From: Acidimicrobiales bacterium
Lineage (GTDB): Bacteria > Actinomycetota > Acidimicrobiia > Acidimicrobiales > Aldehydirespiratoraceae
Assembly: GCA_963662645.2 (NCBI GenBank)
Contig: OY759762.1
Coordinates: 1,933,160 to 1,997,159, forward strand
Length of the DNA: 64,000 nucleotides
Direction: 5' to 3'
The notes beneath the pieces were generated by a model that was not told the DNA's origin, searched no databases, and saw only the letters and a program-made list of their open reading frames with translations. Within the stretch, counting starts at the first letter, position 1. Each line of letters opens with the position of its first letter. Of this stretch, positions 6,822 through 64,000 are shown piece by piece. The position numbers and the translations under genes are program-made.

Positions 6822-6854
6822 GGTTCGCGCCGCACGAAGGAGTTTCTTGTTGGA

Positions 6855-29911: not shown

Positions 29912-29985
29912 TATGCCAACCTCCGTCAAGATGTGAGCACCATCCCGGTGCTCATGGCCCAATGGACAACCTTGGAGGCAACACC

Positions 29986-40172: not shown

Positions 40173-41165
40173 GTGAAGTTCGGACTCTGGTATGACTTCC
40201 GCAATCCTCTGAAGCAACCGTGGTCGCAGCTGTACGAGGAGCTGCTCGACCAGATCGTCTGGGCGGACTCAGCCGGCTTCGAATCGGTCTGGCTGTCGGA
40301 GCACCATGTCACCGACGATGGCTACATGCCGTCGGTGTTTGTGATGCTGGCCGCCATCGCGGCTCGGACACAGCACCTGCGGCTTGGTACCGCCGTGTGC
40401 CTGGCGCCTCTCCACCATCCTGTCCGCCTGGCAGAGGACGTGGCGGTGGTGGACATTCTCTCCGGCGGTCGCGTCGAGCTCGGCCTTGCGCCCGGGTACC
40501 GGCCTTTCGAGTTCGAGGCGTTGGGCGTGCCTCGGCGCGAGCGTGGCCTCCGCACAGACGAGACGGTCGACATCCTGCGCCTGGCCTGGGCCGGTGAGCG
40601 CTTCTCGTATTCGGGCAGAGTGTTCGATCTGCAGGATGTCGTTGTTCAGCCGGTTCCGCGGCGCGGTCCCGAACTACCGATCCACATCGGTGGCTCCAGT
40701 TCGGCCGCGGCCGTCCGGGCAGGACGCCACGGCTGCAACTTCATGCCCGATGTCGGCACGGGTATAGGTCTCCACAACCAGTACCGGTCAGCGCGGGCCG
40801 AGAATGGTTTCAATGCTGACACCGGCGCCATAACGATGAATGGCTGCGTATTCGTCTGCGAGGAACCCGACCGCGGGCGTGCTCAGGTCCATCGTTCTCT
40901 CACTTACATGTACGAGCGCTATGACGCCTGGGAGAGGGAGGACGACTCCGAAGTCACCGCTTTCGAGCCCATCGACATACAGCGGCTGGACGAATTGTGC
41001 ATCATCGGGACGCCTCAAGAAGTGACCCGCCGGATGAGAGCCATTCGCGATGAGTTCTCACCCGACCGCTTCATATTCTGGGGCAGGCTGCCGGGAATGC
41101 CAATAGAGGACGCGAGCCGATCACTCCAACTGTTCGCCAACGAGGTGATGCCGACCCTCGTTTGA
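40173..41165 (+). CDS. LLM-class (luciferase-like) flavin/F420-dependent oxidoreductase
   Basis: VKFGLWYDF...AGFESVWLSEHH TIM-barrel N-terminus typical of luciferase-like monooxygenases. GTG 40173. Confidence 0.8.
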   Translation: MKFGLWYDFRNPLKQPWSQLYEELLDQIVWADSAGFESVWLSEHHVTDDGYMPSVFVMLAAIAARTQHLRLGTAVCLAPLHHPVRLAEDVAVVDILSGGRVELGLAPGYRPFEFEALGVPRRERGLRTDETVDILRLAWAGERFSYSGRVFDLQDVVVQPVPRRGPELPIHIGGSSSAAAVRAGRHGCNFMPDVGTGIGLHNQYRSARAENGFNADTGAITMNGCVFVCEEPDRGRAQVHRSLTYMYERYDAWEREDDSEVTAFEPIDIQRLDELCIIGTPQEVTRRMRAIRDEFSPDRFIFWGRLPGMPIEDASRSLQLFANEVMPTLV

Positions 41166-43463
41166 GACTAGATCCGCAATCTGCTCAGGCCGGATCGGAA
41201 CCCGGTCGATCTCATGCCCGGTTGCATCCTCCACGGCATTGGCCAGAGCGGCCACCGCAGCGTGCAATCCGGCCTCGCCGATCCCGCGCATCCCTCCCGG
41301 ATGCTCCGACGGAGACTGGATGTGAACGATCCTCATCTGAGGAACGACATCCCACTCTCTGGGCAGCAGGTAGTGGATGAGACTGGACGTGAGCAGGGCG
41401 CCCTGCCGGTCGTAGTCGACAGCCTCCAGGAAGACCGACCCCACACCCTGGGCTACTCCACCCCGTACCTGGCCCTCCACGATCGACGGATTGATGATCA
41501 CGCCGCCGTCCTGAACAACCACATACTCAAGGACCTTGAATGCTCCGGTCGCCTCGAACAACTGGACGACGGCGACATGGCAGCCGTTGGCTGTGGTGTA
41601 GTAGCGGTGGTTCAGGTAACGGTTGGTTGACTCTAGCCCCGGTTCCATGCCAGCCGGAAGGGACTGGGCCTGCAGATGGGACCTCATCGCAATCTCGTCG
41701 AGAGTGATCGCGGCGGACGGCACGCCACGAACTGTTGCCCGACCAGCCGCGAGGTCGATGTCATCGGGACTTGCCTCCAACAGATGCGCGGCGATGGCCC
41801 GCATCTTGGTTGCCACCGCGGCTGCAGCCGTCTTGGTGGCCGCCCCTCCTAGCACTCCTGCCCGGCTGCCGTGGGTGCCTCCGCTGTAGGGGCACATGAG
41901 CGTGTCTCCGGCCCGGACCGTGATCCGGTTCACAGCCACGCCGAGTTCGTCGGCTGCGATCTGCGCCAGTGTCGTCTCCAAGCCCTGACCTTGACTCGAA
42001 ACGCCGGCGAGAATGGTCGCGTCACCGGAGGGCTCGATTCGCACCGTTGTTGAGTCGAAGGGTATGGCGACCGATGGATCGGGACCCATCACGCCGGCCG
42101 CCGTGGGGGCGACATAGCTGGCGATGCCCAGGCCGATGTGTCGGCCCTCGGACGCGGCCGCAGCCCGCCGCTTCTCCCAGGCGTCGAAGCCGATGTGATC
42201 AAGTGCGGTTTCCAGTGCTTCGAGGTGGGTCCCGGTGTCGATTTCGAGACCCCCGTGGGTTGCGAACGGGATTTCCGAGGCGGTGATCATGTTGCGGCGC
42301 CTCAACTCCGCCCGGTCGATGCCCAGGCGGCGGGCGGCCCGATCCAGCAACGATTCGGTGATCCACGTGGCTGCCGGCCCTCCGGTGGCTCGGTAGGCGC
42401 TGGTTGGGGTGGTGTTGGTCAGTACTCCCCTGCACCGGTAGCCGTAATGACCTATGCGGTACGGTCCCGGGAGCGACGTTGATCCGATGAACGTCTCAAC
42501 CAGGGCCCCCGACCACGGCACCGCGAAGAAGGCTCCTGCGGGGCAGGTGAGTTCTACACCCAACCCGGTCCAGGTGCCGTCGCGTTCGAAGGCTGCTATG
42601 GCCTGGTAGCTGGATCCCCGGCACTGGTAGTCGCTGGTGAAGGCCTCGTACCGGTCGCAAATCCACTTCACCGGACGCTGTAAGCGGCGGGCTGCGAGGG
42701 CAACCACAAGATCCTCGGGATAGACAGCCAGCTTCACGCCAAAGGCCCCTCCCACGTCGGGAGTGACGATCCGCACCGCAGTCTGGGGCAGTTCCAGGAG
42801 AGCGGCGAGCGCGTCCCGCAGGATGTGGGGCATCTGTGTGCCCGTGTGCAGGGTGAGCCCCCCACCGTTCGGATCCGGTACGGCCAGGACGCCCCGCGTC
42901 TCCATCGGCATGGCCGTCTGCCGCTCGGTCCGGTATTCGGCCTCAACCACCAGATGGGCAGAAGCGATGGCCTCATCGAGTTGAGCTGGCCAGGAGTCGT
43001 TGATCAGAACGACATTGGTCTCTTCTCCGGCGTGAACCGTAGTGCCACCTTGAAGGCTCTCGTCGATCTCGGTCACGGCAGCGAGGGGCTCGATGTCGAC
43101 GGGCACCTGCTCGGTGAGGTCCTCCGCGACGTAGCGATTGGACGCCATGACGACCGCTATCGGCTGACCGACGTAGGTGACCTCGCCGCCGGCGAGCAGT
43201 GGCTGGCGGGGACCTGAGTCGTTGGTCAGCTCGTGGGGCAGGTCCGTATGGCCCAGAACGGCGATCACTCTCGGATCGTCGCGGACGGCGTCCAAGCCCA
43301 CGTTCAAGATCCGTCCGTGTGGAACCGGACTGCGCACGAAGGCGGCATGGGTGGTGTGAGCTGGTTCGAGATCGGCCACGAAACGGCCGCGGCCCCGCAG
43401 GAGCCTTTCATCCTCCAGCCGGGCCAGCCGGGTGCCGACTACAGGCGTCGTACGACTCGTCAC
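41121..43463 (-). CDS. Xanthine dehydrogenase family molybdopterin-binding large subunit (module A; not a CO dehydrogenase signature)
   Basis: RLEDERLLRG N-terminus, ETRG, GGAFG, AYRATGGP active-site loop, GIGEAG near the C-terminus. ATGA overlap with the 2Fe-2S subunit gene. Confidence 0.9.
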   Translation of the reverse strand: MTSRTTPVVGTRLARLEDERLLRGRGRFVADLEPAHTTHAAFVRSPVPHGRILNVGLDAVRDDPRVIAVLGHTDLPHELTNDSGPRQPLLAGGEVTYVGQPIAVVMASNRYVAEDLTEQVPVDIEPLAAVTEIDESLQGGTTVHAGEETNVVLINDSWPAQLDEAIASAHLVVEAEYRTERQTAMPMETRGVLAVPDPNGGGLTLHTGTQMPHILRDALAALLELPQTAVRIVTPDVGGAFGVKLAVYPEDLVVALAARRLQRPVKWICDRYEAFTSDYQCRGSSYQAIAAFERDGTWTGLGVELTCPAGAFFAVPWSGALVETFIGSTSLPGPYRIGHYGYRCRGVLTNTTPTSAYRATGGPAATWITESLLDRAARRLGIDRAELRRRNMITASEIPFATHGGLEIDTGTHLEALETALDHIGFDAWEKRRAAAASEGRHIGLGIASYVAPTAAGVMGPDPSVAIPFDSTTVRIEPSGDATILAGVSSQGQGLETTLAQIAADELGVAVNRITVRAGDTLMCPYSGGTHGSRAGVLGGAATKTAAAAVATKMRAIAAHLLEASPDDIDLAAGRATVRGVPSAAITLDEIAMRSHLQAQSLPAGMEPGLESTNRYLNHRYYTTANGCHVAVVQLFEATGAFKVLEYVVVQDGGVIINPSIVEGQVRGGVAQGVGSVFLEAVDYDRQGALLTSSLIHYLLPREWDVVPQMRIVHIQSPSEHPGGMRGIGEAGLHAAVAALANAVEDATGHEIDRVPIRPEQIADLVSNEGRHHLVGEQLE

Positions 43464-43939
43464 GGCGCTGGCTCTTGCCGGGGCCGCATCGCGGCCTCGA
43501 TGGCGGTAATGATCGGCTCGTAGCCGGTGCAGCGGCAGATGTGGCCCGATACGGCCTCGCGAACATCGATCTCTTCATTCCCCAATGACTCGAGTAGGGC
43601 TTGGGCGGTCATCAGCAGCCCGGGTGTGCAGAAGCCGCACTGCAGGGCGTGATTGTCACGGAACGACTTCTGCAGATCGCTGAGTTCGACGCCGGCCAGG
43701 CTCTCGACGGTTCGAACCGTCGAGCCGTGGGCCGACGCCGCGAGCATCAAGCAACTGCGTACCGGCAGGTCGTCGACCAAGACAGTGCAGGACCCGCAGA
43801 CGCCGTGCTCGCAGCCGATCTTGGTGCCGACCAACCCGCAGCCGTCCCGGATGAAGTCGGCCAGCGTTGTTCGCGCATCGACTCGACCGTCGATCGTTGC
43901 CCCGTTGACGACTATCTCCAGCGAGACGGGTGCACTCAT
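43460..43939 (-). CDS. (2Fe-2S)-binding small subunit of the Mo-hydroxylase (module A)
   Basis: GCEHGVCGSCTV and CGFCTPG...CRCTGY motifs. 159 aa from ATG 43939. The longer tracked ORF upstream is discarded. Confidence 0.92.
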   Translation of the reverse strand: MSAPVSLEIVVNGATIDGRVDARTTLADFIRDGCGLVGTKIGCEHGVCGSCTVLVDDLPVRSCLMLAASAHGSTVRTVESLAGVELSDLQKSFRDNHALQCGFCTPGLLMTAQALLESLGNEEIDVREAVSGHICRCTGYEPIITAIEAAMRPRQEPAP

Positions 43940-44808
43940 CGATTCATCTTTCTGCGGGAGCCTCGTGGAGATGAAGCGGCCTGGCCGAAGGCATCCGCGG
44001 CCAGGTGCTGAATCAGGCGACGGTGATACCGGTCGTGGTCGGCGGTGGCGCTGTCCGCTGTCGCTTGCGCGGCAAGTCCGACATCCAATCCCGTGGCCCC
44101 CTCGGCGGTTATGCGTTCCTCCGCGGCATGGTGGCGGCGCACGGGACCGCCGGCGGCGAAGGTCACAACCCGGCATCCGGTGACAACTCCGCTCTCGTGG
44201 GAGTGAACCTGGCACGCAACGCCGGCGGAGGCATAGTCTCCAGGTCGGCGCGAATACTCGGAGAAGCCGTGGCCGGTGCCGGCCCCGGACCGCGGGAATC
44301 GGACCGCTTCGACGAGTTCATCGTCGGAGATCGTCGTGGTGTAGGCCTCGGCCAGGAAGTCGTCGATCAACACGGAGCGGCTGCCGCGCACTGACTTCAG
44401 CCGTACCTCCGCGCCCAGCGCCAGCGCGACGGCCGGGAGTTCGCCCGCAGGGTCGTTGTGGGCAATGCTCCCGACAACGGTTCCACGATTGCGAATCGGC
44501 ATGTGTCCAACGTGGCTGATCGCTCGGGCGATGATCGGGAACTGGCCGATGGCTCCGTACTCGATGACTCGCCGGTATGTGGCCGCGGCGCCCACTTCGA
44601 GACCCTGGGCGTCAGCCTCGATGGCCATCAGATCGGCCGTCTTGGAGATGTCGATCAGATGACTCGGTGCCACTATGCGCAGGTTCATCATCGGCAACAG
44701 GGATTGGCCGCCCGCCAGAATCCTGGCTTCGTCACCGAACTGCGCCAGCACCTCTACGGCGTGCGCTGCCGCTTCAGCCCGGTGGTACGTGAACGGCGCG
44801 GGCTTCAT
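43936..44808 (-). CDS. FAD-binding medium subunit of the Mo-hydroxylase (module A, CoxM/XdhB-like)
   Basis: ILAGGQSLLPMMNLR and NRGTVVGSIAHNDPAGE FAD-binding motifs. Confidence 0.9.
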   Translation of the reverse strand: MKPAPFTYHRAEAAAHAVEVLAQFGDEARILAGGQSLLPMMNLRIVAPSHLIDISKTADLMAIEADAQGLEVGAAATYRRVIEYGAIGQFPIIARAISHVGHMPIRNRGTVVGSIAHNDPAGELPAVALALGAEVRLKSVRGSRSVLIDDFLAEAYTTTISDDELVEAVRFPRSGAGTGHGFSEYSRRPGDYASAGVACQVHSHESGVVTGCRVVTFAAGGPVRRHHAAEERITAEGATGLDVGLAAQATADSATADHDRYHRRLIQHLAADAFGQAASSPRGSRRKMNR

Positions 44809-44824
44809 GGACTGCCTGCTGCGC

Positions 44825-46963
44825 TCAGCGAGAGGCCAGCGCGAGGATGTGGCTCATGTCCTGGCGATCCCGGGCCACCCGACGCTCCCGGATGAACGGG
44901 AGCGGGACCGCGGGATCCTCGCTGTCGATCTCGCGTGCCAACCGGTGGCCGTCGAAGATGGCGTCGGCGACCAGCATGCGGGGGGAGACGCAATCCCCGA
45001 TGCGGAAGAGTTGTGGCCGGGACTCCTCCGGAGCCGATGACACGGCCTGCTGCACGCCGTCCCACAGGGCTGTGTTGGGGATCCGCTGGGTTGTCATGAC
45101 CGTCGCGGCACCGATGGTCCGAACCGTGCTGTTGAAGCCGTGCTCGACGGTCACTTCACCCGCGGTGACATCCGTGACCATGTACTCCATCAGGAGTTCC
45201 ACCCCCAGTTCTTCGAGCAGTGGCCTCATGTGAACGTTCTCACCGGTCATGCGCATGTAGGGGCCTGGCTCCATGTGAGGTGTCACGAAACAGACACGGT
45301 GGCCGCGCCGGGCGAGGACCTCGGCGATACTCACCCCCATGAAGTAGCCCTCGATGTCGAAGACCACCACCTGTTCCTGGTCGACGGAGCGCTCGTCGGC
45401 CAGTATGTCCTCGGGCGTGAACACCGGAGCCGACTCCCAGCCGGCGACCTCCGAGTGGGTGAAGCCGTTCAGGCCGGACCGGTCCCAGACGGATCCATTG
45501 GCGACCACGACGATGTCGGCGCCGTAGTCGAGGATGTCGGAGGCGCTCAACTCCGAGTTGGTGATCAACGCGACCTGTGGGAGTTTGTCGATCTGCCCCT
45601 GGCGCCAGTTGATCACGCGACGCCAGGTCGACATTCCGGGAATGGTCGAGACCCACCGCAGATGGCCGCCGATCTCAGGCTCGGCCTCCACGACGTGCAC
45701 ATTCTCGAAGCCGCGCTTGCCCAGAACCATCCCACATTCGAGCCCGGCGCCTCCGGCTCCGACGATTAGGACGCTGGCGTCGCGGTTCGACGCCGGTGAG
45801 TAGTTCTCCGGATGCCAGCCGCGCTTGTACTCTTCGCCGGCCGTGGCGTTCTGGGTGCACAGCAGGGTCCAGCGAAGATTGACACGCGACACGCAGGCGT
45901 TGCAGCCGATGCACTCTCGAATGTCCTCGAATCGACCCTCTTCGATCTTGCGGGGGAGGAACGGATCCGAGATGGAGGGTCTGGCCGCCCCGATGATGTC
46001 GAGTTGGCCACTTGTGACCGCATCCAGCATGGTGTCCGGGCTGGTGAAACGGCCCACGCCCACGATCGGCTTGCCGGTGTGGGGGCGAACTTGGCGGACC
46101 CATTCCGCTTGGAAGTTCTCCTTGTAGAACCGAGCCGGTCCTGCATCCTTGATCCATAGCTCAACGTTCTCCCCTCCAACCTGGAGATCCCAGAAGTCGA
46201 CGAGGTGGTCGGCCAGCTCGATGAATCCCACGCCCTCCTCCGCGACCCGGATTCCGGCGTCTGTGCCATGGAGCGAATCGACGCAGAACCGGGCTGCCAC
46301 CGACAATTCGTCACCGACCTCTTCCTTCACAATCTCCAGCGTCTCCATCCAGAAGCGGGCTCTATTGACGAGCGATCCGCCGTACTCGTCGGTGCGGGAG
46401 TTGTGTACGTTCATGAGGAACTGGACTGGCACGGCCCCGATCTCGGCGCCGTGTATGTTCACTATGTCGAAGCCTGCACTTCGCGCTCTTCTGGCTGCTT
46501 CCAAGTAGAGTTGCTGCACTTCCCGGATGTCTGCTCTAGTCATGGCCCGTACCGAGCCGAAGTACGCGGCCTCCTCGATTCTTCCGTGAATGTGCCGCGC
46601 CGGTATGCGGCTGTCGATGTTTGTGGAGAACGCCCCGCCTGCATGAAGCTCGATGCCTGCGAGCGAATCATGCTCATGGATCTTGTCGGTCATCCATGCC
46701 CAGTTGGCCACATCGTCGTCGTCCCAGATCCGGGACGGCGTCATCTGGCCCGCCCAGTCAAACTCGGGGGCGATGGTGGTCGCCTCGGTGTTGACGACAG
46801 CCCAGCCGCCTTCAGCCTTGATGCCGCGGTGGTAAGCCTGACCGCCCGGAAACACGTCGCCAAATCCGGTGCATTGGGGTGTCTGATAGAAGCGATTCCT
46901 CATTGTCTTGGGTCCGATCCTGACTGGCTCGAACAGGACGTCGAATCGCTTGGGACGGCTCAT
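44825..46963 (-). CDS. Trimethylamine/dimethylamine/histamine dehydrogenase-family flavoprotein (FMN + [4Fe-4S] + ADP/NAD-type domain), paralogue A
   Basis: FDVLFEPVRIGPKTMRNRFYQTPQCTGFG (Cys at the covalent-FMN position), RTDEYGGSLVNRARF, IIGAARPSISDPFLP, CIGCNACVS...LCTQN, VLIVGAGGAGLE. Confidence 0.8.
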   Translation of the reverse strand: MSRPKRFDVLFEPVRIGPKTMRNRFYQTPQCTGFGDVFPGGQAYHRGIKAEGGWAVVNTEATTIAPEFDWAGQMTPSRIWDDDDVANWAWMTDKIHEHDSLAGIELHAGGAFSTNIDSRIPARHIHGRIEEAAYFGSVRAMTRADIREVQQLYLEAARRARSAGFDIVNIHGAEIGAVPVQFLMNVHNSRTDEYGGSLVNRARFWMETLEIVKEEVGDELSVAARFCVDSLHGTDAGIRVAEEGVGFIELADHLVDFWDLQVGGENVELWIKDAGPARFYKENFQAEWVRQVRPHTGKPIVGVGRFTSPDTMLDAVTSGQLDIIGAARPSISDPFLPRKIEEGRFEDIRECIGCNACVSRVNLRWTLLCTQNATAGEEYKRGWHPENYSPASNRDASVLIVGAGGAGLECGMVLGKRGFENVHVVEAEPEIGGHLRWVSTIPGMSTWRRVINWRQGQIDKLPQVALITNSELSASDILDYGADIVVVANGSVWDRSGLNGFTHSEVAGWESAPVFTPEDILADERSVDQEQVVVFDIEGYFMGVSIAEVLARRGHRVCFVTPHMEPGPYMRMTGENVHMRPLLEELGVELLMEYMVTDVTAGEVTVEHGFNSTVRTIGAATVMTTQRIPNTALWDGVQQAVSSAPEESRPQLFRIGDCVSPRMLVADAIFDGHRLAREIDSEDPAVPLPFIRERRVARDRQDMSHILALASR

Positions 46964-46999
46964 GAGATTTGGCTCCTTCTATCGGCAGCGCAGGGTATG

Positions 47000-47899
47000 T
47001 CAGAGGTGGAGAGCGAACCAGTGGGCGCATAGAGCGGCCGCTTCGTCACGTCTGTGCCTGTCCTTGTAGATGGTTTGGTGTGTCGACTTGCGGATGACCT
47101 CGAGCCGCTTGTCGCGGCAACCGATGGCGTGGTAGGCGTCGAGAGCGAGATCCCAATGGGTGTGGTCGTCGCCCTCGGCCAGCACCATCAGGGTGGCGCA
47201 TCTGTCGATCCGTTCGGCGTAGGGGCGGACGTTGTACTCGAGCAGCCATTCGGTTGATCGGGTGGTGGCCTTGCCGACATAGTTGGGCCCTTCGATGACG
47301 AACTCGCGGAACATGTCGGCGCTGGTCGGAAACGGCCACGTCGAGAGGCCCTGCGGTTCCTGGGGGTTGTGATCGAGGTAGCCGGGATCTGCGCCGCCGA
47401 ACTGGGCGGACCGGTCCGCCTCGACGGCTCCCAGCAGCTCCCGGAAAGAGATCGTGCCGTGAGCCAGACGCAGGTTCTCGTAGCCGTTGATCACCGGCAC
47501 AACGGAGCTGGTCGCCTTGATTCGCCGGTCAGTGGCGGCCAGCTGGAGAACGTGGCCGCCGCTGTAGGAGATCCCCCAGACACCGATTCGTTCGGGGTCG
47601 ACGCCGTCGATCTGTTGGGCGAAGGAGATGGCGTTCTTGTAGTCCTCGATCTGATCCCACGGATTGATTCTCTGCCGGGGTTCGCCTTCGGATTCTCCCA
47701 GGTAGCGGTAATCGAAGACTAGAGCGGCCATCCCTCGAGAGTTGAATTCTCTCGCGAAGGACGGTTGCACGATCTCCTTCACATAGCACCAACCACCCCC
47801 CTGCACGATGATCGGGAGTTCGCTGCCATCGGACTTGTCGGGAAGATACAGGTCGGCTGAGATTCTCAGGCCGTCACTGAGGAATGTGACATGTTCCAT
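47000..47899 (-). CDS. Alpha/beta hydrolase
   Basis: Nucleophile elbow GISYSGG. 299 aa. Overall alpha/beta-hydrolase spacing with late Asp/His (EGDDHTH). Confidence 0.75.
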   Translation of the reverse strand: MEHVTFLSDGLRISADLYLPDKSDGSELPIIVQGGGWCYVKEIVQPSFAREFNSRGMAALVFDYRYLGESEGEPRQRINPWDQIEDYKNAISFAQQIDGVDPERIGVWGISYSGGHVLQLAATDRRIKATSSVVPVINGYENLRLAHGTISFRELLGAVEADRSAQFGGADPGYLDHNPQEPQGLSTWPFPTSADMFREFVIEGPNYVGKATTRSTEWLLEYNVRPYAERIDRCATLMVLAEGDDHTHWDLALDAYHAIGCRDKRLEVIRKSTHQTIYKDRHRRDEAAALCAHWFALHL

Positions 47900-47992
47900 T
47901 GCAACAACTCCGTGTGTGGTCGCTCTACGTGTTCTGCTCTGCGTTCGACGTTGAGGCGGTTTGCCTTCGATAAGCGAGTCCGAACCACCCGT

Positions 47993-51599: not shown

Positions 51600-51640
51600 T
51601 CGGTGTGTCGACGAAAGCTATCAGAGCGCGCCGTCGTGGA

Positions 51641-53836: not shown

Positions 53837-54107
53837 CTGTTCTTCTCCCCCATCTGACGAACGCCTTGAGCGGCGTTTTCGTCCGTTCACACTACCGTCG
53901 AGCCGTCATCCGGCGCAAGACTCGGGGGATTCTGCCGTTCGACGCTATGGTCGAAACAAGCCATTATAGGAGGTCACAGCATGTTTATGGATGGGCACAA
54001 TCGCGGCGCGGCGCCCCTTGACGCCCGACGGCGACCTTGTTACGGTGAGCGAATCGGCGTATCGATGAGCGAGGTGCGTCGAAGCGAATCTGACGGGGAC
54101 GGCCGGC
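53837..54107. promoter_or_regulatory. Shared divergent control region of the two long catabolic operons
   Basis: 270 bp between two divergently oriented first genes, with lower GC than the flanks. Contains inverted repeat TTCGAC-N6-GTCGAA (53938-53955) and a strong AGGAGG (53968-53973). Confidence 0.55.
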
Positions 54108-56428: not shown

Positions 56429-56434
56429 GGGTCC

Positions 56435-58564
56435 ATGCTGATGAGAGATCCCCGCTACGACATTCTGTTCGAACCGATAAGGATCGGCCCCAAAGTGCTG
56501 AAGAACCGGTTCGTGCAGGTTCCTCACTGCACCAACTTCGGAACGGATCTGCCCGCAAGCCAGGCCGGTGTGCGGGCCATGAAGGCAGAGGGCGGATGGG
56601 CTCTGGTCAACACTGAGTACTGCTCGATCCACCCTGAATCGGATGACTATCCCCGCAATTTCTGCCGTCTGTGGGACGACACCGACGTGAGCAACCTCTC
56701 GGTCATGACCGAGGCAGTGCACGCTCACGGCGGGCTCGCCGGGGTCGAGTTGTGGTACGGGGCGGCCCACTCCGGCAGCTACGAGTCCAGAATCCCCGTC
56801 CGGGGGGTATCACAGCTCAACTCCGAGGACTTCTACGACCAGTCCTGCTATGAGATGTCGGTGGAGGAGATCCACGAACTGCAAGGGTTCTATGTGGATG
56901 CGGCCCGGCGAGCGGTGCGGGCCGGGTTCGATGTCATCAATGTCTATGCCGGCCACTTCCACACGATCGCCCTGCAGTTCCTCGGCCCGTTCTACAACAA
57001 GCGGACGGACCAGTACGGCGGCAGCTTCGAGAACCGCGCCCGGTTCCTGAAGGAGACGCTGGAGAAGGTGCGCGAGGCGGTCGGCGAGGAGGCCGCCGTC
57101 GGCACCCGCTTCAACATCGACAGCCTCAGAGGCTCCGATGGCATAGAGGTAGACAAGGACGGCTTGAAGCTGATCGAGCATCTCGACCACCTCGTGGACT
57201 TCTGGGACCTGCACATCGGCAGCATCACCAACTGGGAGGAGGACACCGGCCCCTCCCGGATGCGCGAAGAGAACTGGTGCGCGCCCTGGATCGGCAGGGC
57301 CCGCTCGGTGTCGTCCAAGCCGATCATCGCGGTCGGGCGCTACGTCAGCCCCGACGTGATGGTGGATGTGATCCGCTCCGGCACCGCTGACATCATCGGG
57401 GCCGCCCGCCCCTCCATCGCCGACCCGTTCCTGCCGAAGAAGATCGAGGAGGGCCGGATCGAGGACATCCGCGAGTGCATCGGCTGCAACGTATGCATCG
57501 CGGTGGTGTGGGGGGTCGGCTCGCGGCTGGTCTGCACCCAGAACCCCACGGCCGGCGAGGAGTACCGCCGCGGTTGGCACCCCGAGAAGTACTCGCGAGC
57601 CTCCAACCACACCAGGACCGTCCTGGTGGTGGGCGCCGGGATGGCCGGGCTCGAATGCGGGATGGTGCTCGGCGCGCGGGGCATGGCGGGGGTGCACATC
57701 GTCGAGGCCCGTTCCGAGCCCGGCGGCACCATGGCGTGGATCCCGAACCTGCCGGGATTGGGGGAGTGGCGCCGTGCCGTGGGCTGGCGCGAGTCGCAGA
57801 TCGAGAGGCTCGACAACGTCGAAGTGATTCTCAATCGCCGGCTCGACGTTGACGACGTGCTCGACTACGGCGCCGAGATTGTTGTGGTCGCCACCGGATC
57901 GGAATGGGCCTCCGACGGCGTCAATCCGCTCACCCACGAAGCGATTCCGGGCGCGGACGCCGGCCTGCGGAATGTGTTGACGCCCGAGCAGATAATGATC
58001 GACGGCAAGCCGGTGCCCGGTACCTCGGTGGTGATCTACGACACCGACGGGTATTTCGTCGGCCCCTCCCTGGCGGAGATGCTCGCGGCCCAAGGCCATG
58101 CTGTGCGCCTCGTGTCGCCCCAGGCCGAGCCCGGGCACTTTCTTCACATGACCGGCGAGTTCGGCCACGTCACCAGCCGCATCTACGAACTCGGTGGCGA
58201 CATCGCAGGCAACTGCTCCATCAGCCGGATCGAGCCCGGCCGTGTCCTCGCCGAACACCACTACCGGGAAGGCTGCGCCGAATGGGAGGCGGACGCGGTC
58301 GTTCTTGTAACCCAACGGATCTCCCGAGACGGGCTGTATCGCCACCTGATCGCCGACCAGGCCCGACTAGCTGAAGCCGGGATCGTGGCCGTCCACCGCG
58401 CCGGTGACTGCATCGTTCCCGGGATCGTGGCCGATGCCGTCTTCTCGGGCCACCGGCTGGCTCGCGAGATCGACACCAACAATCCCGACCAGCATCAGCC
58501 CTTCGAGCGCGAGCGGCTCGTCCTGCCCGTGCGGGCGCCGCTCAGAATCGGCAGTGCAGCGTGA
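56435..58564 (+). CDS. Trimethylamine/dimethylamine/histamine dehydrogenase-family flavoprotein, paralogue B
   Basis: YDILFEPIRIGPKVLKNRFVQVPHCTNFG, KAEGGWALVNTEYCSIHPESDD, RTDQYGGSFENRARF, IIGAARPSIADPFLPKKIEEGR, CIGCNVCI...VCTQNPTAGEEYRRGWHPE, VLVVGAGMAGLE. Confidence 0.85.
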   Translation: MLMRDPRYDILFEPIRIGPKVLKNRFVQVPHCTNFGTDLPASQAGVRAMKAEGGWALVNTEYCSIHPESDDYPRNFCRLWDDTDVSNLSVMTEAVHAHGGLAGVELWYGAAHSGSYESRIPVRGVSQLNSEDFYDQSCYEMSVEEIHELQGFYVDAARRAVRAGFDVINVYAGHFHTIALQFLGPFYNKRTDQYGGSFENRARFLKETLEKVREAVGEEAAVGTRFNIDSLRGSDGIEVDKDGLKLIEHLDHLVDFWDLHIGSITNWEEDTGPSRMREENWCAPWIGRARSVSSKPIIAVGRYVSPDVMVDVIRSGTADIIGAARPSIADPFLPKKIEEGRIEDIRECIGCNVCIAVVWGVGSRLVCTQNPTAGEEYRRGWHPEKYSRASNHTRTVLVVGAGMAGLECGMVLGARGMAGVHIVEARSEPGGTMAWIPNLPGLGEWRRAVGWRESQIERLDNVEVILNRRLDVDDVLDYGAEIVVVATGSEWASDGVNPLTHEAIPGADAGLRNVLTPEQIMIDGKPVPGTSVVIYDTDGYFVGPSLAEMLAAQGHAVRLVSPQAEPGHFLHMTGEFGHVTSRIYELGGDIAGNCSISRIEPGRVLAEHHYREGCAEWEADAVVLVTQRISRDGLYRHLIADQARLAEAGIVAVHRAGDCIVPGIVADAVFSGHRLAREIDTNNPDQHQPFERERLVLPVRAPLRIGSAA

Positions 58565-59412
58565 CTGCGGCAGTCCAGGCCTACCGGCGCCCGACCGATC
58601 TCGATGCAGCCCTCGCGTTGCTGGCCGCCGCTGGCAGTCTCCCCCTGGCCGGAGGCACGGACTTCGTGCCCATGCAGCGCTCGCGCTCGATCAACCCCGC
58701 CACCATCATCGATCTGAAGCACGTCCCCGAGTTGCGCCGGGTCGAGGCCCGCAACGACCACGTGACTGTCGGCGGCTGCGTGACCATGGCTGAGATCGGT
58801 GCGCTCCGAGGAGTTGGGATCGGCGCGCTCACCGATGGCGCCAACTATGTGGGCGGCCGCCAGACGCGGGCCCGGGCAACTCTGGGGGGAAACGTGGCCC
58901 GCTCCTCGCCCGCGGGCGACACGCTGGCGCCCCTGCTGGCTCTGGACGCGGTCGCACGGGTGGCTGGGGTCAGCCACGGCGGCCGAGACATGCCGCTGAG
59001 CAGTTTCTTCGTCGGCCCCGGCCAGAACCGGCTGGAACCGGGCGAGATCATCACCGAGATCGTGGTTCCGGCCGCGGGGGCGTCGGCCTATCTCCGTTTC
59101 ACCTACCGGTCCTGGATGGACTTGGCGGTGTCCGGCGTAGCCGTCTGGATCCGACCGGACGGTGCCGGCTTGGCCGAGGCCCGGGTGGCCTTGTGCGGCG
59201 TCGGACCCACCCCGCTGCTGGTTCCGGCGGCCGCCGCGGCCCTCGTCGGCCCGGAGCCCGACATGGCCGAGGCGTCGAGGGCGCTCGAGGCGGCCGCGCA
59301 GCCCATTGATGACGTCAGGGGGACGGCTGAGTACCGGCTGGCCTCGCTTCAGCCGCTGCTCTCCCGCGCGCTGGCCACCGCGATGTCTCGGGGCAGGGAG
59401 GAATGGCCGTGA
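58561..59412 (+). CDS. FAD-binding medium subunit of the Mo-hydroxylase (module B)
   Basis: LAGGTDFVPM and ATLGGNVARSSPAGD FAD motifs. GTGA overlap with the upstream gene. Confidence 0.88.
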   Translation: MTAAVQAYRRPTDLDAALALLAAAGSLPLAGGTDFVPMQRSRSINPATIIDLKHVPELRRVEARNDHVTVGGCVTMAEIGALRGVGIGALTDGANYVGGRQTRARATLGGNVARSSPAGDTLAPLLALDAVARVAGVSHGGRDMPLSSFFVGPGQNRLEPGEIITEIVVPAAGASAYLRFTYRSWMDLAVSGVAVWIRPDGAGLAEARVALCGVGPTPLLVPAAAAALVGPEPDMAEASRALEAAAQPIDDVRGTAEYRLASLQPLLSRALATAMSRGREEWP

Positions 59413-59915
59413 CGAGTAGTCCCGCCGGTAGCTCTATCTTGACCCTCGAAGTCAACGCGGAACCGCGCCGGGTCACCGTCGCCGCGACGACACTGCTGGT
59501 GGACGCCCTTCGGGACGGGCTCGGTCTGACCGGAGTCAAGCATGGGTGCGGAACCGGCGATTGCGGGTCGTGCACCGCCATGGTCGATGGCCAGGCGGTG
59601 ACCACCTGCCTCGTTTACGCGATGGAGTGTGACGACATGGCCATCGTTACCCCTGAACACGTCGCCGAGTCGGTCATTGGACGCATCCTGGTCGAGGAGT
59701 TCGTTACAGCCGGTGCAGTGCAGTGCGGCATCTGCATTCCCGGCTTCATCGTCCAGGCCGCCGCCGTGCTCGATGAGCTGGGGCCCGCTCCGGCACCGGC
59801 AGAGATCAAGGACGCCCTCGCGGGGAACATCTGCAGGTGCACCGGGTACTACCCGATCATAGCGGCCGTCATCGCGGCCGCTGCTCGCCTCGCCGCCGAG
59901 GGAGGTGCGTCGTGA
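59403..59915 (+). CDS. (2Fe-2S)-binding small subunit of the Mo-hydroxylase (module B)
   Basis: GCGTGDCGSCT and CGICIPG...CRCTGY motifs. Confidence 0.92.
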   Translation: MAVTSSPAGSSILTLEVNAEPRRVTVAATTLLVDALRDGLGLTGVKHGCGTGDCGSCTAMVDGQAVTTCLVYAMECDDMAIVTPEHVAESVIGRILVEEFVTAGAVQCGICIPGFIVQAAAVLDELGPAPAPAEIKDALAGNICRCTGYYPIIAAVIAAAARLAAEGGAS

Positions 59916-62179
59916 CAGCGCCCCATTCCCGATTCGGCGGCCGCTCCGACGCCGGTGCCAAGGCCGGCGGGCGGGCCGGATACACGGAGGATCTAGCACC
60001 CCCCGACGCGCTGGTGGGCGTGGTGGTGCGGGCCCGGTCGGCGCCATCGCGGGTCGCGGAGCTCGACGTCGACGCGGCCGCCGCCGTCGCCGGCGTCCGC
60101 TGCGTGCTCACCGCGGCCGATGTCCCGAAGGTGAGGATGGGCATCGTCGAGCAGGACGAGCCTGTTCTGGCCACCGACGTCCGCTATGTGGGCGAGCCCA
60201 TCGCCCTCATAGCGGCCACCGATCTCGACGCCGCCGAGGCCGGCGCGGTCGCGCTGGCCCCCACGCTGGCGGATACCGGGCCGCCGGCCGTGAGCATCGA
60301 GTCGGCCATGGCCGAAGGGGCTCCGCAAGTGGTGGCCGGGGAGGGCAACGTCAAGGAACCCTCCGCAGTAGAGCGCCTCGATGTCGATCGCGCTTTCGCG
60401 GACGCCCATGCCGTGGTGTCCACCACCGTTCGCACCGCCCGCGTCCACCAGGGCTACATCGAGCGCCGGGCCGCCATCGCCGCGTTCACGGAGGAGGGTC
60501 AATTGGTGGTCACCATGTGCTCGCAGGCGCCGTTCCAGGTTCGCCAGACCCTGGCCAGCCTGTTCTCGATGCCGCTGAACCGCGTCACCGTCAGGGTGCC
60601 CGCCTTCGGGGGTGGATTCGGCGGGAAGCTTCACAACGGTATGGCCCCTTACGCAGCCTGCCTGGCCCGGGTGACGGGTCAGACCGTTCGGGTCGCATCC
60701 ACCCGAAGCGACGAGCTTCAAGCGTCGAACCCGCGCGAGGCGTCCATCGTCACCCTGGAGACCGCGGTCAACGAGTCCGGCGATCTCCAGGCCCGCCGCG
60801 CCGTGGGTTACTACGACTCGGGGGCCTACGCCGTGGACACCGCCTTCATCACCTCCATGGGCGCGTTGCAGTCTGGCGGCCCCTACCAGATCCCGGCCGT
60901 GCGGGCCAGGATTCACGCCGTCCGGACCCACCTTCACTCCACCGGCTCGTTCCGGGCGCCGTCGGGTCCCCAGATGTGCTTCGCCAACGAGGTCCACATC
61001 GAGGACATCGCGGCCGGACTGGGTTTGTCGCCGGTGGAGCTTCGGCGGCGGAACTTGATGAGGGCGGGAGGTCTCGGGCCCACCGGGCAGTCCATCGAGT
61101 CGGACGCGGCTCTCGCCGTCCTCGATGAGGCCGAGGCGGTGATGGCGGCCTGGCAGGGTTCTCCGACACCGCCGCCCGACCCCCAGACGAAGGTCGGGAT
61201 CGGTCTGGCCATGAGTTGGTGGTTCACCGCTCCGGGCCACTCGTCAGCCACATTGCGGATGGAGGAAGACGGCAGCGCGACGCTCTTCACGGGGAGCACC
61301 GAGATCGGCACCGGCGCGGTGGTGAGCGGCGTAAGGGTCATAGTGGCCCGCCGGCTCGGCCTTGTCCCCGAGCAGGTCCACGTGGTGTCGGGCAACACGG
61401 AGACCACACCGCCCGACTTCGGCTCGGAGGGGTCGCGCACCCTCTACGGCGCGGGTACCGCGGCCATGCGGGCTGCCGACGAGGTCAGGGCCATCCTTGC
61501 CGAGGAATACGCCCGCCGGCTCGAGGCCAGCCTCTCCGACGTCCGTTTCACCGACGGCGCTCTGCAGATTGCGGGCAGCCCCGAGACGGCGGTCGCCATA
61601 AGCGAGTTGGTCGGGGCGGTGTCCATGGCGTCAGGGCCGGTCGTGGGAACCGGCCGGTTCCAGGCCGAGCCGGTGGCTTTCGACTCGGCCTGCGCGACCA
61701 ACATGCCCCTGCCCACCTTCAATGAGCCCACGTTCCACTGCCACGTCGCCGAGGTGCATCTCGATACTGGGCTGGGCCGCATATCGATACCCCGGTACCT
61801 GGCGGTCCATGACACGGGCACGGTCGTGGACCGCCAGAGCGTCATCGGCCAGATTGAGGGCGGGGTCGTGCAGGGCATAGGCCAGGCCCTGTTCGAGGAG
61901 ATCATGGTTGGCGAGAACGGGGCGACGGTGAACGACAGCCTCGTCGACTACCGGATGCCCACTATCTGCGACATTCCCCACGAGCTTGTGGTCAAGACGG
62001 TCGAGGACTTCCCGTCCAGGACCGGGCCGCTGGGCGCCAAGGGCATCGGGGAGGCCCCCGTGATGCTCGCTCCCGCCGCCCTGGCGTCGGCCATCCGGAA
62101 CGCGGCCGGCGTTCGCCTGACCGCGCTGCCACTGTCGGCGGACCGGGTGCTGGCCGCACTGAGGGAGCAGCGGCCTTGA
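59912..62179 (+). CDS. Xanthine dehydrogenase / aldehyde oxidase family molybdopterin-binding large subunit (module B)
   Basis: GGGFGGK, GSFRAPSGPQ and GAKGIGEAP motifs. GTG 59912 overlaps the small-subunit stop. Confidence 0.9.
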   Translation: MTAPHSRFGGRSDAGAKAGGRAGYTEDLAPPDALVGVVVRARSAPSRVAELDVDAAAAVAGVRCVLTAADVPKVRMGIVEQDEPVLATDVRYVGEPIALIAATDLDAAEAGAVALAPTLADTGPPAVSIESAMAEGAPQVVAGEGNVKEPSAVERLDVDRAFADAHAVVSTTVRTARVHQGYIERRAAIAAFTEEGQLVVTMCSQAPFQVRQTLASLFSMPLNRVTVRVPAFGGGFGGKLHNGMAPYAACLARVTGQTVRVASTRSDELQASNPREASIVTLETAVNESGDLQARRAVGYYDSGAYAVDTAFITSMGALQSGGPYQIPAVRARIHAVRTHLHSTGSFRAPSGPQMCFANEVHIEDIAAGLGLSPVELRRRNLMRAGGLGPTGQSIESDAALAVLDEAEAVMAAWQGSPTPPPDPQTKVGIGLAMSWWFTAPGHSSATLRMEEDGSATLFTGSTEIGTGAVVSGVRVIVARRLGLVPEQVHVVSGNTETTPPDFGSEGSRTLYGAGTAAMRAADEVRAILAEEYARRLEASLSDVRFTDGALQIAGSPETAVAISELVGAVSMASGPVVGTGRFQAEPVAFDSACATNMPLPTFNEPTFHCHVAEVHLDTGLGRISIPRYLAVHDTGTVVDRQSVIGQIEGGVVQGIGQALFEEIMVGENGATVNDSLVDYRMPTICDIPHELVVKTVEDFPSRTGPLGAKGIGEAPVMLAPAALASAIRNAAGVRLTALPLSADRVLAALREQRP

Positions 62180-64000
62180 AGCGCATCGGTATCGATGTCG
62201 GCGGTACCTTCACCGATGTCGTCGTGCTGGACGAGGACAGCGGCGCCACGTCGTGGTTCAAGTCCTCCACCGACTACGACAACCCGGCCGAGGGTGTTCT
62301 GGATGTCGTATCCGCCGCGTGCGGGCCCGGCGACCCCGTGTCGCAGATAAAGCTCGGAACCACCCTAGGTCTCAACGCCATCCTGACCCGCAGCGGTGCG
62401 GCCACCGGCCTGCTCACGACTCGCGGGTTCCGCGACGTCTTGGAGATCCGCCGGACCCACCGCAAACGACTCTTCGACCTGAACGAGACCGTGCCCGAGC
62501 CGCTCGTGCTGAGGAACCGCCGCGTGGAGATAACCGAGCGGATGTCGTCCTCGGGCGAGGTGGTGACCCCCCTCGACGAGGACGAGGTGCGACGGGCGTG
62601 GCGGCATCTGCGCAGCCAGGGCGTGACCGCGGTGGCGATCGTCTATCTGTTCGCCTTCGAGAATCCAGCCCACGAGCAGCGCACTTCAGAGATCGTCGTC
62701 GAGGAGGGCGGCGCCGAGGTGGTGCTCACTTCGACGGAAGTGCTTCCGGTGCTGAGGGAGTACGAGCGCACGTCCACCACCGTGGTGGCGGCCTACGTGA
62801 CCCCGGCCGTCCGGGGATACCTGGCCGATCTCGAGGCCAAGCTCGCCGGGCAGGGATACGGCGAGGGCCGCATATCGGTCATGACCAACTCGGGCGGCGC
62901 CATGGCCGCCGACATGGCGTCGAGGGCGCCGGTGCCAACACTGATGTCAGGGCCCGCTGGCGGTGTCGCCGCGGCCAAGTGGCTGGCTGAGCGGGCCGGC
63001 ATCACCAGCCTGCTCACGCTCGACATGGGCGGTACGAGCTGCGATGTGTCGGGCATAGTGGACGGCGTCCCCGACGAGCGCCTCGACATGGAGGTCGGCG
63101 GCATCGACGTCGCCTACCCGACCTTCGACATCCACACCATCGGCGCGGGCGGGGGCTCCATAGCGTGGATCGACTCCGGGGGCGCGCTGCGGGTCGGCCC
63201 CCAGTCCGCGGGCAGCACCCCGGGCCCGGCCTGCTACCGGAGGGGCGGCACGAGCCCGACGGTCACCGACGCCAACCTGGTGCTGGGACGGTACGACGCC
63301 AAGACCGTGCTCGGCGGGTCACTCACCCTCGACGCCGACGCCGCTCACGCCGCCATCTCCGAGCACATCGCGTCCCGGTTGGGCGTGAGCGTCGAGCAGG
63401 CTGCGGCCGGGATCCTGCGGATCGTCAACGCCCACATGGTGAACGCGGTCCGCGCGATCTCGGTGGAGCGGGGCCGCGACTCGCGCCGGTTCGCGTTGAG
63501 CGCCTTCGGCGGGGGAGGCCCGGTGCACGCCACCGACATCGCCCGCGAGCTTCACATACCGACGGTGCTCATCCCGCCGTTCCCCGGATGCACGTCGGCC
63601 TTCGGCGCGGCCATCTCGGTGTCGCGACAGGACATCCTCCGGTCGGTGGCCCGCGATGTCGACGAGCTCGATGTGGGCCATCTCCGGGATCAGCTGGAGT
63701 CGATGTCGGCCGAGGCCCGGGGCTCCCTCGCGCAGGAGGGATACCCGCAGGATCGCATGCGGACCGAGGTCTGGTTCAACTACCGCTACGCCGGGCAGGC
63801 CCATGACCTGGCCGTGCGGATGCCGGAGGGGGACCTCGACGCTGCTCGTCTGGCGACGTCGGTGGAGGACTTTCACCGCCTCCACGAGCAGCTCTACGGG
63901 CACTCGTTCCAGGACGTCTCCGTGGATCTAGTGACCATGCGCGTCGCGGGGTTCGCAATTCCCGATGATCCCGAGATGTGGTGGGACTGGGACTGGGCCG
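62176..64000 (+). CDS. Hydantoinase/oxoprolinase family protein (HyuA-type), 3' end outside the window
   Basis: Hand-translated frame-1 ORF absent from the track (open to the window end). Reads LKRIGIDVGGTFTDVV..., TNSGG, LTLDMGGTSCDV, IGAGGGSIAW, GPACYRRGG..PTVTDANLVLGR. TTG start overlaps the upstream stop (TTGA). Confidence 0.85.
   Translation, partial: MKRIGIDVGGTFTDVVVLDEDSGATSWFKSSTDYDNPAEGVLDVVSAACGPGDPVSQIKLGTTLGLNAILTRSGAATGLLTTRGFRDVLEIRRTHRKRLFDLNETVPEPLVLRNRRVEITERMSSSGEVVTPLDEDEVRRAWRHLRSQGVTAVAIVYLFAFENPAHEQRTSEIVVEEGGAEVVLTSTEVLPVLREYERTSTTVVAAYVTPAVRGYLADLEAKLAGQGYGEGRISVMTNSGGAMAADMASRAPVPTLMSGPAGGVAAAKWLAERAGITSLLTLDMGGTSCDVSGIVDGVPDERLDMEVGGIDVAYPTFDIHTIGAGGGSIAWIDSGGALRVGPQSAGSTPGPACYRRGGTSPTVTDANLVLGRYDAKTVLGGSLTLDADAAHAAISEHIASRLGVSVEQAAAGILRIVNAHMVNAVRAISVERGRDSRRFALSAFGGGGPVHATDIARELHIPTVLIPPFPGCTSAFGAAISVSRQDILRSVARDVDELDVGHLRDQLESMSAEARGSLAQEGYPQDRMRTEVWFNYRYAGQAHDLAVRMPEGDLDAARLATSVEDFHRLHEQLYGHSFQDVSVDLVTMRVAGFAIPDDPEMWWDWDWA

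Follow-up and report, generated by a model that had tools for sequence, protein, structure and literature searches.

We analysed a stretch of 64,000 nt from the genome of an Acidimicrobiales bacterium (assembly GCA_963662645.2, contig OY759762.1; the whole stretch is called the window, and positions refer to it), in which two long operons are transcribed divergently from a common spacer. Each operon combines the gene for a flavoprotein of the trimethylamine dehydrogenase (TMADH) family with the genes for a molybdenum (Mo) hydroxylase, which is composed of a medium subunit (M) with flavin adenine dinucleotide (FAD), a small subunit (S) with two [2Fe-2S] clusters and a large molybdopterin subunit (L). 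The two sets are named A (minus strand) and B (plus strand). The cluster brings together enzyme families that are known in a way that has not been described and that has recurred in evolution, and it probably breaks down one or more organic nitrogen compounds.

Gene content of the two divergent operons

Gene identities were assigned by Pfam scans of the open reading frames (ORFs) of the window. On both arms, and at the same positions, these scans recovered every gene that an earlier note on this DNA, made from the sequence alone, had named. In a check against the curated NCBIfam families none of ten window proteins reached an equivalog, and literature searches found no description of the cluster or of a pathway with this gene set. 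The view of the earlier note that the cluster matches no described pathway is therefore upheld. The plus arm, the spacer and the minus arm contain the following features.

54108-55430, plus strand: class-III (GSA-aminomutase-like) aminotransferase (Aminotran_3; no NCBIfam equivalog)
55427-56428, plus strand: luciferase-like (LLM) oxidoreductase B (Bac_luciferase)
56435-58564, plus strand: TMADH-family flavoprotein B (TMADH-family domains)
58561-59412, plus strand: Mo hydroxylase B, FAD subunit, 283 aa (FAD_binding_5 and CO_deh_flav_C)
59403-59915, plus strand: Mo hydroxylase B, 2x[2Fe-2S] subunit (Fer2 and Fer2_2)
59912-62179, plus strand: Mo hydroxylase B, molybdopterin subunit (Pfam)
62176-64000, plus strand, running off the window: HyuA-type subunit of an ATP-dependent lactamase/hydantoinase (Hydant_A_N and Hydantoinase_A)
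53837-54107, no strand: divergent intergenic spacer (read from the sequence)
51641-53836, minus strand: lipoprotein with two tandem Peripla_BP_4 solute-binding modules of a CUT2-type ABC importer (Pfam; lipobox LLAAACGG)
49032-51599, minus strand: ABC importer protein, fusion of two ATPase domains with a permease domain (ABC_tran twice and BPD_transp_2)
47993-49039, minus strand: second ABC permease (BPD_transp_2)
47000-47899, minus strand: alpha/beta hydrolase of about 300 aa, Peptidase_S15/BD-FAE type (Pfam)
44825-46963, minus strand: TMADH-family flavoprotein A (Oxidored_FMN and Pyr_redox_2)
43936-44808, minus strand: Mo hydroxylase A, FAD (medium) subunit (FAD_binding_5)
43460-43939, minus strand: Mo hydroxylase A, 2x[2Fe-2S] (small) subunit (Fer2 and Fer2_2)
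41121-43463, minus strand: Mo hydroxylase A, molybdopterin (large) subunit (Ald_Xan_dh_C and MoCoBD_1/2)

The two operons diverge from a spacer of 270 bp, as had been described before. Coordinates also confirm the coupling of the plus-arm genes by ATGA, GTGA or TTGA overlaps or gaps of at most 6 nt: in the direction of transcription the junctions are ATGA (55427-55430), a 6-nt gap (56429-56434), GTGA (58561-58564), a 10-nt overlap (59403-59412), GTGA (59912-59915) and TTGA (62176-62179). On the minus arm 16 nt separate the flavoprotein A gene from the Mo hydroxylase genes.

Between 34.5 and 64 kb Pfam detected no transcription-factor domain and no electron transfer flavoprotein (ETF) domain in any gene-sized ORF, and the intergenic gaps in this region are too short for a further gene; the ORF at 34527-34997 on the minus strand encodes a PaaD-like Fe-S assembly protein. 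The statement that no ETF gene is present thus stands. The statement that no regulator gene is present holds for the same region, but not as a general trait, since an IclR gene is present in five related loci (L002-L005 and L087; loci of relatives are designated by L and a number). In the two closest relatives, L001 and L007, IclR was not seen within the stretch read. The missing regulator gene is a local peculiarity of the window cluster.

Two flavoprotein clades and their molybdenum hydroxylases

Both flavoproteins show the domains Oxidored_FMN, OYE-like_second_a-b and Pyr_redox_2/NAD_binding_8, i.e., an Old Yellow Enzyme (OYE)-like barrel for flavin mononucleotide (FMN) followed by two Rossmann-type domains. 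TMADH of Methylophilus methylotrophus W3A1 (1djn/2tmd) and histamine dehydrogenase (3k30, 6de6) have the same three-domain architecture. Scores for A and B were highest to TMADH (1djn; 610 and 732 bits), followed by histamine dehydrogenase (6de6; 474 and 547 bits) and the structure 6l6j (454 and 524 bits), compared to only 118 and 125 bits to 2,4-dienoyl-CoA reductase (1ps9). These values bear out the placement in the TMADH clade that the earlier note had preferred over 2,4-dienoyl-CoA reductases; assignment to the latter or to mycofactocin OYE proteins was rejected, as the scores were far below those for TMADH or below the cut-offs. A and B are 43% and 49% identical to TMADH, and their identity to each other (49%) lies within the roughly 40-50% that had been estimated by eye.

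We aligned 99 family members to TMADH residue numbering. Cys30, which we take to be the position of the cysteine bearing the covalent FMN (6-S-cysteinyl-FMN), and the four cysteines of the 4Fe-4S cluster (C345, C348, C351, C364 of TMADH) are kept in A, in B and in every member of their two clades; A and B also share Arg222 and Asp267 with TMADH. Of the aromatic bowl for a methylammonium head group (Tyr60, Trp264, Trp355) and the Tyr169-His172-Asp267 triad of TMADH, only W264 and D267 remain in A. Its replacements are Y60A, W105H, Y169H, H172E, Y174G and W355V, and the same or similar ones were found in 8 of 8 members of its clade. Flavoprotein B keeps Tyr60, Trp105, Tyr169, His172, Trp264 and Asp267, carries S74F and Y174H, and has the Trp at 355 shifted by one residue due to a one-residue insertion. 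Judged by these comparisons, A and B are bona fide TMADH-family enzymes. A is predicted to be an FMN/4Fe-4S amine dehydrogenase with an altered substrate pocket, and it probably binds something other than small N-alkyl groups or methylamines. Having a pocket close to that of TMADH, B may bind small N-alkyl groups; its substrate, too, is probably something other than methylamines.

To place both proteins, a tblastn census was made in species-representative genomes (80 loci, the best 80 of more than 600 matches), and a neighbour-joining tree of 99 TMADH-family proteins was scored for a Mo hydroxylase within 10 kb. Clade A (window A, L001, L088, L002, L089, L087, L050 and L084) has a Mo hydroxylase within this distance in all eight loci, and clade B (window B, L007, L003, L005 and L004) in four of five. 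Among the other family proteins in the tree, which include TMADH-like genes of methylotrophs, this was the case for 1 of 86 (L042). The four-gene block of flavoprotein and hydroxylase subunits, which had been noted on both arms of the window, is thus conserved as a neighbourhood (12 of 13 members of the two clades versus 1 of 86). The members belong to Acidimicrobiales, Nocardioides, Prauserella, Pseudonocardia and unclassified metagenome contigs, and the pairing is conserved across several actinobacterial lineages. Unlike TMADH, A and B are found outside a methylotrophy context, have no ETF gene nearby and precede the genes of a Mo hydroxylase.

In 10 of the 13 clade loci, the first hydroxylase gene follows the flavoprotein gene directly, its start lying no more than a few bases from the stop codon. 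In L050 the hydroxylase genes lie about 1.7 kb downstream of the flavoprotein, in L084 they lie upstream of it, and L003 has lost them. The close adjacency persists in M-S-L as well as in S-L-M order and with an A-type or a B-type large subunit; L002, L087 and L089 combine a clade-A flavoprotein with a B-type large subunit. Three genomes contain both module types, namely the window (back to back), ENA contig_22529 (contiguous, L087 running into L004) and the genome of the isolate Nocardioides cavernae (L002 and L005, about 19 kb apart).

Both Mo hydroxylases possess the full L/M/S set (hammerhead and two molybdenum cofactor (Moco)-binding domains; two 2Fe-2S domains; FAD_binding_5), and no signal peptide was found on them. 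Identities between A and B are 28% for the large, 28% for the FAD and 42% for the Fe-S subunits. Since these values are lower than the 49% of the flavoproteins and since the large subunits have different best relatives, the quartets did not arise by block duplication. A recent duplication of this kind is ruled out by the low subunit identities together with the distinct L subfamilies, and the earlier suggestion of a conserved functional pairing instead holds more strongly than when it was made.

Among solved structures, large subunit A scores best with quinoline 2-oxidoreductase (Qor, 1t3q; 468 bits), followed by 6-hydroxypseudooxynicotine (ketone) dehydrogenase (Kdh, 7dqx; 382 bits), CoxL (372-374 bits) and the aldehyde oxidoreductase 4zoh (336 bits), so that by its sequence A is best described as Qor/Kdh/CoxL-like. 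It shares the L/M/S organisation with Qor and Kdh. Large subunit B represents another branch, with the alpha subunit of 4-hydroxybenzoyl-CoA reductase as best solved relative (265 bits). The GIGEAG motif of A aligns with GMGES of Qor, with the Glu at chain position 743, which is presumably the catalytic Glu of Qor, and GIGEAP of B aligns with GIGEAG of A. Neither large subunit reaches any NCBIfam cut-off, and FAD subunit A matches the glyceraldDH_beta profile over residues 1-268 below the cut-off. Aerobic CO dehydrogenase (form I CoxL) was rejected, as the scores were 429-577 bits versus cut-offs of 950-991 and the signature loop is missing: at the position of VAYRCSFR, which we take to be the CoxL active-site loop with the Cu-binding cysteine, A has SAYRATGG and B has GSFRAPSG. 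4-hydroxybenzoyl-CoA reductase was also rejected for B, which scored 404 bits versus a cut-off of 995. The beta subunit of this reductase carries an extra 4Fe-4S insertion, and the FAD subunit of B (283 aa) shows only FAD_binding_5 and CO_deh_flav_C.

The reactions of Qor and Kdh are hydroxylations at the carbon adjacent to a ring nitrogen, with a lactam tautomer as product. The resemblance of subunit A to both could mean that the two enzymes of each arm have independent roles: the Mo hydroxylase would first attack an aromatic N-heterocycle next to the nitrogen, comparable to the nicotinate, quinoline and nicotine pathways, the TMADH-like enzyme would act on an aliphatic amine side chain or a later intermediate, and the two would be neighbours only through a common pathway. 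The precedent named in the earlier note, the TMADH-family enzyme Pno in the hybrid (VPP) nicotine pathway of Agrobacterium tumefaciens S33, is real, and a complex of the Mo hydroxylase Ndh with Pno has been reported (PMC6122326). This pathway uses both enzyme families in non-consecutive steps (PMC6122326, PMC7688666). Its NdhAB is a periplasmic enzyme of two subunits without FAD that uses pseudoazurin, and its Pno uses EtfAB/Euo, for which the nicotine cluster has genes (PMC7688666), whereas the window hydroxylases have three subunits including one with FAD, and no signal peptides. The structure 6l6j lacks the FMN-linking Cys that the window flavoproteins keep; it is probably that of Pno, the missing Cys being in line with the published description (PMC7688666). 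In the 11 relatives' loci with Pfam-annotated gene tables (roughly 20 kb each; called genes and Pfam hits) and in the window, Pfam found no ring-cleavage dioxygenase, no pyridone-type flavin monooxygenase and none of the VPP genes paz, etfAB, euo, hno, hsh, hpo, nfo, ami and iso. All this makes independent roles distinctly improbable. The hybrid nicotine cluster itself was rejected as identity of the locus, since Pfam found no pseudoazurin, etfAB/euo, hno, hsh or hpo/nfo/ami/iso in 33-64 kb, pyridine-ring genes are absent, and the hydroxylases here have FAD.

The lack of an ETF gene in the window region and in the annotated loci of the relatives, and the overlapping or closely spaced genes for flavoprotein and hydroxylase subunits, would also fit a mere redox partnership, in which the Mo trimer replaces ETF and serves mainly as electron exit (2Fe-2S, FAD) for the TMADH-like enzyme and itself acts hardly or not at all as a hydroxylase. 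Yet both types have conserved a complete molybdopterin subunit, including the Glu that aligns with Qor 743, the gene for the cofactor-insertion chaperone XdhC alongside these genes in L087 argues for a catalytically active Mo site, and ETF genes may lie elsewhere in the genome. We therefore regard a partnership without Mo chemistry as very improbable.

Spacer, importer and neighbouring genes

Transcription of both arms presumably starts from promoters in the spacer. Searches of it revealed neither a sigma-70-like promoter nor an inverted repeat nor a match to Rfam (including the Moco riboswitch); the only terminator-like match lies just outside, within the start of the binding-protein gene, for which an alternative GTG start exists at 53890. 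A short block, GGGAtTCTGCCnnttGACnCTA, at about 53924-53947 recurs upstream of the aminotransferase gene of L007 (about 7500-7530). It is common to the window and this Candidatus Aldehydirespirator sp. although the upstream genes differ, and it is a candidate promoter or operator element. The spacer also contains an ORF of 45 codons (53968-54118, plus strand) with a perfect AGGAGG 7 nt 5' of its ATG, which ends 11 nt within the aminotransferase gene and has no Pfam match. Its GC content at third codon positions is about 60% by eye versus 80-90% in the coding genes, and it could be a leader peptide or due to chance.

The binding protein of the minus arm is an internal tandem duplication, with halves that are 67% identical, a single lipoprotein signal and an acidic Ala/Asp-rich linker between them; the B-type locus of N. 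cavernae has a single-module homologue (42% identical). The 841-aa ATPase-permease fusion is also present in N. cavernae (L005). Transporters vary among the relatives: CUT2 with the ATPase-permease fusion in the window and N. cavernae, HAAT in L001 and L088, and Opp in L004, L087 and L089. Because of these differences they do not identify the substrate. The alpha/beta hydrolase, a candidate ester, lactone or amide hydrolase, showed a partial match below the cut-off to the UilS lactonase family of NCBIfam. Its gene adjoins the clade-A flavoprotein in L001, L087 and L088; L002 and L003 contain it as well.

One further gene is convergent to the minus arm.

About 40173-41165, plus strand: luciferase-like oxidoreductase, probably F420/FMN-dependent (Bac_luciferase)

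This LLM protein reaches the cut-off of TIGR03619 (167.8 versus 166.9), and its membership in the pathway is uncertain. The convergent arrangement is repeated in L001, whose flavoprotein is 92% identical. The 3' ends of the LLM gene and the large-subunit gene A overlap by 45 nt (41121-41165), and this overlap is kept in L001 (15802-15846). A gene for an APH-family kinase-like protein without NCBIfam match (38981-40138, plus strand) lies between TRAP transporter genes and the LLM gene; the order of LLM, APH and TRAP genes is conserved in L001, so the APH gene may belong to the island. Further away, an ORF of 803 aa (29224-31635, plus strand) has a Peripla_BP_6 domain confined to residues 411-760. 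Either its start was called too far upstream in this GC-rich DNA, or the N-terminus of the binding protein is extended by a long stretch without a recognised domain.

The window (60-70% GC) carries dnaN, dnaA, yidC and dnaB and therefore lies at a chromosomal origin region. The catabolic island is located within about 40-60 kb of the probable replication origin, with dnaN and dnaA (minus strand), yidC and dnaB located at 1498-4267, 5508-6821 and 22521-23987. The nearest public relatives of the window proteins are from Acidimicrobiales, and the flavoprotein B region is 94% identical to that of Candidatus Aldehydirespirator sp. OZ244866.1 (L007). A plasmid collection contained no orthologues; homologues in it had at most 52% identity and came mainly from proteobacteria, including the amine utilisers Paracoccus and Aminobacter aminovorans.

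A proposed route from amines to amino acids

HyuA, whose gene runs off the window, scored 443 bits to N-methylhydantoinase and 363 bits to 6yra (5-oxoprolinase according to the PDB file name; we take it to be the caprolactamase of Pseudomonas jessenii) versus 211-260 bits to acetophenone and acetone carboxylases. By these scores it is nearer to the lactam and hydantoin hydrolases than to the carboxylases, and the lower values make a function as ketone carboxylase less likely. Exact-sequence look-ups with large subunit B and flavoprotein B of the window gave no match, and the stretch beyond 64000 was therefore deduced from L007 and other relatives. In L007 a HyuA 91% identical to that of the window is followed by HyuB, E1alpha, E1beta and E2, and because of this order the plus arm very probably continues in the same way past the window end. 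HyuB follows HyuA in L003, L004, L005 and L007, and HyuA and HyuB occur together in 9 of the 13 clade loci (window arms counted separately, and the cut HyuA counted for the plus arm).

Loci of clade B share the order (IclR)-aminotransferase-(LLM)-flavoprotein-M-S-L-HyuA-HyuB-E1alpha-E1beta-E2. The aminotransferase is present in five of five, LLM oxidoreductase B has orthologues in L007 and L003, and L003 has as extra genes two short-chain dehydrogenases/reductases (SDRs) and a Peptidase_S15 hydrolase. Loci of clade A contain genes for the alpha/beta hydrolase, flavoprotein, Mo hydroxylase, HyuAB, E1alpha/beta, E2, a DAP_DH_C dehydrogenase, SDR, LLM, XdhC and IclR. In two sisters within clade A, L050 and L084, HyuAB is replaced by M20 amidohydrolases and DUF1028, so that here, too, a function in amide hydrolysis adjoins the flavoprotein/Mo pair.

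The Mo hydroxylase family attacks the carbon adjacent to a nitrogen and yields a lactam tautomer, and mammalian aldehyde oxidase converts the nicotine iminium to cotinine. This chemistry, the iminium expected from a TMADH-type reaction and the gene order suggest a linear route. The TMADH-family FMN/4Fe-4S dehydrogenase would act on a secondary or tertiary amine, probably a cyclic one, and oxidise one of its C-N bonds by two electrons to an iminium, and the Mo/FAD/2Fe-2S hydroxylase would add water-derived oxygen at the electrophilic C=N carbon, resulting in a lactam or amide. The HyuA/HyuB ATP-dependent lactamase would then open the lactam to an amino acid, the class-III aminotransferase would remove the amino group (a DAP_DH_C dehydrogenase instead in paralogous modules of other genomes), and the E1alpha/E1beta/E2 complex encoded beyond the window end would turn the oxo compound into an acyl-CoA. 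Uptake and the handling of side groups may fall to the ABC importer, the alpha/beta hydrolase and the LLM oxidoreductases. The two arms would be paralogous ways of entry into the pathway that differ in their substrate pockets; the minus arm would have lost its downstream genes and presumably feeds the lactamase and dehydrogenase set of the plus arm. We put forward this sequence of steps, with its order and substrate class, tentatively and give it somewhat less than an even chance of being correct. An N-heterocycle or alkaloid, as proposed earlier, is a plausible substrate class; pipecolate/proline-type imino acids, N-methylpyrrolidine-type amines, polyamines, iminosugars and opine-like compounds can be named as candidates by way of speculation.

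On the plus arm and in its orthologues, the order flavoprotein, M-S-L, HyuA-HyuB, E1a-E1b-E2 matches the proposed order of reactions, and individual parts of the route have precedents. ATP-dependent lactamases such as the caprolactamase CapAB, 5-oxoprolinase and N-methylhydantoinase share the HyuA family with the window, and in the caprolactam pathway of P. jessenii a class-III aminotransferase stands alongside the caprolactamase, as in the window operon (PMC6061476, PMC8453981). In contrast to that system, the lactam would arise in the cell by the flavoprotein/Mo pair and would not be imported, the window-type operon goes on with 2-oxoacid-dehydrogenase-type E1/E2, and HyuB was seen only in the relatives. 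The degradation of azepane via caprolactam in Gulosibacter follows the same logic from cyclic amine through lactam to omega-amino acid with other enzymes (PMC9477822). This route and the P450-dependent piperidine and pyrrolidine routes of Actinobacteria use an O2-dependent P450 and an alcohol dehydrogenase, whereas the two window oxidations would be O2-independent, with a flavin/FeS dehydrogenase and a Mo hydroxylase that uses water. Qor and Kdh act on heteroaromatic rings, while the substrate proposed for the window enzymes is a non-aromatic iminium. For a contact between the two partners, the reported complex of Ndh with Pno is a precedent (PMC6122326).

Such contact could go further. The TMADH-like enzyme and the Mo hydroxylase might form one four-subunit machine for the direct, O2-free conversion of cyclic or tertiary amines to lactams or amides, in which the reactive iminium is channelled from one active site to the other and the electrons from both oxidations exit via the 2Fe-2S/FAD chain of the hydroxylase instead of ETF. 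Such a machine would have arisen on at least two occasions, with Mo hydroxylases that are not orthologous. We consider this extension of the route improbable.

Several points weigh against the route from amine to lactam. L003, an Acidimicrobiales metagenome-assembled genome with a 75% identical orthologue of flavoprotein B, keeps the flavoprotein and HyuAB and has lost S and L, so the Mo enzyme may be dispensable. In L041 and L052 a TMADH-like gene occurs with HyuAB and an aminotransferase and without a Mo hydroxylase within 10 kb, which fits an order with the lactam first. Large subunit A scores about equally well to the profile of archaeal glyceraldehyde (aldehyde) oxidoreductase and to the other profiles. 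Known pathways clear the corresponding amino-aldehydes by ordinary aldehyde dehydrogenases, with no ATP spent. Heterotetrameric E1alpha/beta is usually of pyruvate, branched-chain or acetoin type and is not obvious after a lactam-derived amino acid; its role is not well explained by the lactam route or by its main rival, described below. As to the remains in L003, positions 6326-6871 encode a 181-aa fragment of the FAD subunit in operon register with HyuA, which suggests that the remainder of M, together with S and L, was cleanly deleted.

TMADH and histamine dehydrogenase release aldehydes, and in the N-methylpyrrolidone pathway a HyuAB-type lactamase is followed by an amine oxidase and a semialdehyde dehydrogenase. 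The main rival builds on this chemistry: the TMADH-like enzyme would cleave a C-N bond, the iminium would hydrolyse spontaneously to an aldehyde and an amine, the Mo enzyme would oxidise the aldehyde to the acid, HyuAB would act earlier on an imported lactam or hydantoin to provide an N-alkyl amino acid for the flavoprotein, and the aminotransferase would handle the released primary amine. Pno, too, releases an aldehyde (PMC7688666). The xanthine-oxidase family includes aldehyde oxidoreductases, and large subunit A has 559 bits to the glyceraldehyde dehydrogenase alpha profile. The loss of the Mo subunits in L003, where the rest was kept, would be tolerable if a generic aldehyde dehydrogenase substitutes, and the loci L041 and L052 are in agreement with this order as well. 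However, the genes of a replaceable aldehyde dehydrogenase would be expected to be coupled less tightly to the flavoprotein gene than those of the Mo hydroxylase, which start within a few bases of its stop codon in 10 of 13 loci, with any subunit order. Among solved structures, N-heterocycle hydroxylases come closest to large subunit A (468 and 382 bits versus 336 bits for the aldehyde oxidoreductase 4zoh), and the gene order puts HyuAB after the flavoprotein/Mo pair. Taken together, we consider oxidation of a released aldehyde rather unlikely.

If the proposed amine-to-lactam route is true, it would constitute an oxygen-independent bacterial route from saturated amines via lactams to amino acids, built of two enzyme families whose only link to date is the hybrid nicotine pathway. 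Its enzymes could serve as biocatalysts for the oxidation of amines to lactams and for mild lactam hydrolysis. The repeated recruitment of different Mo hydroxylases to one flavoprotein lineage is a clean case for studying how a two-enzyme unit is assembled. The route would also assign a role to two sizeable clades of proteins annotated as 'dimethylamine/trimethylamine dehydrogenase' in Actinomycetota of soil, sediment and marine metagenomes, whose genes are now counted as methylamine metabolism.

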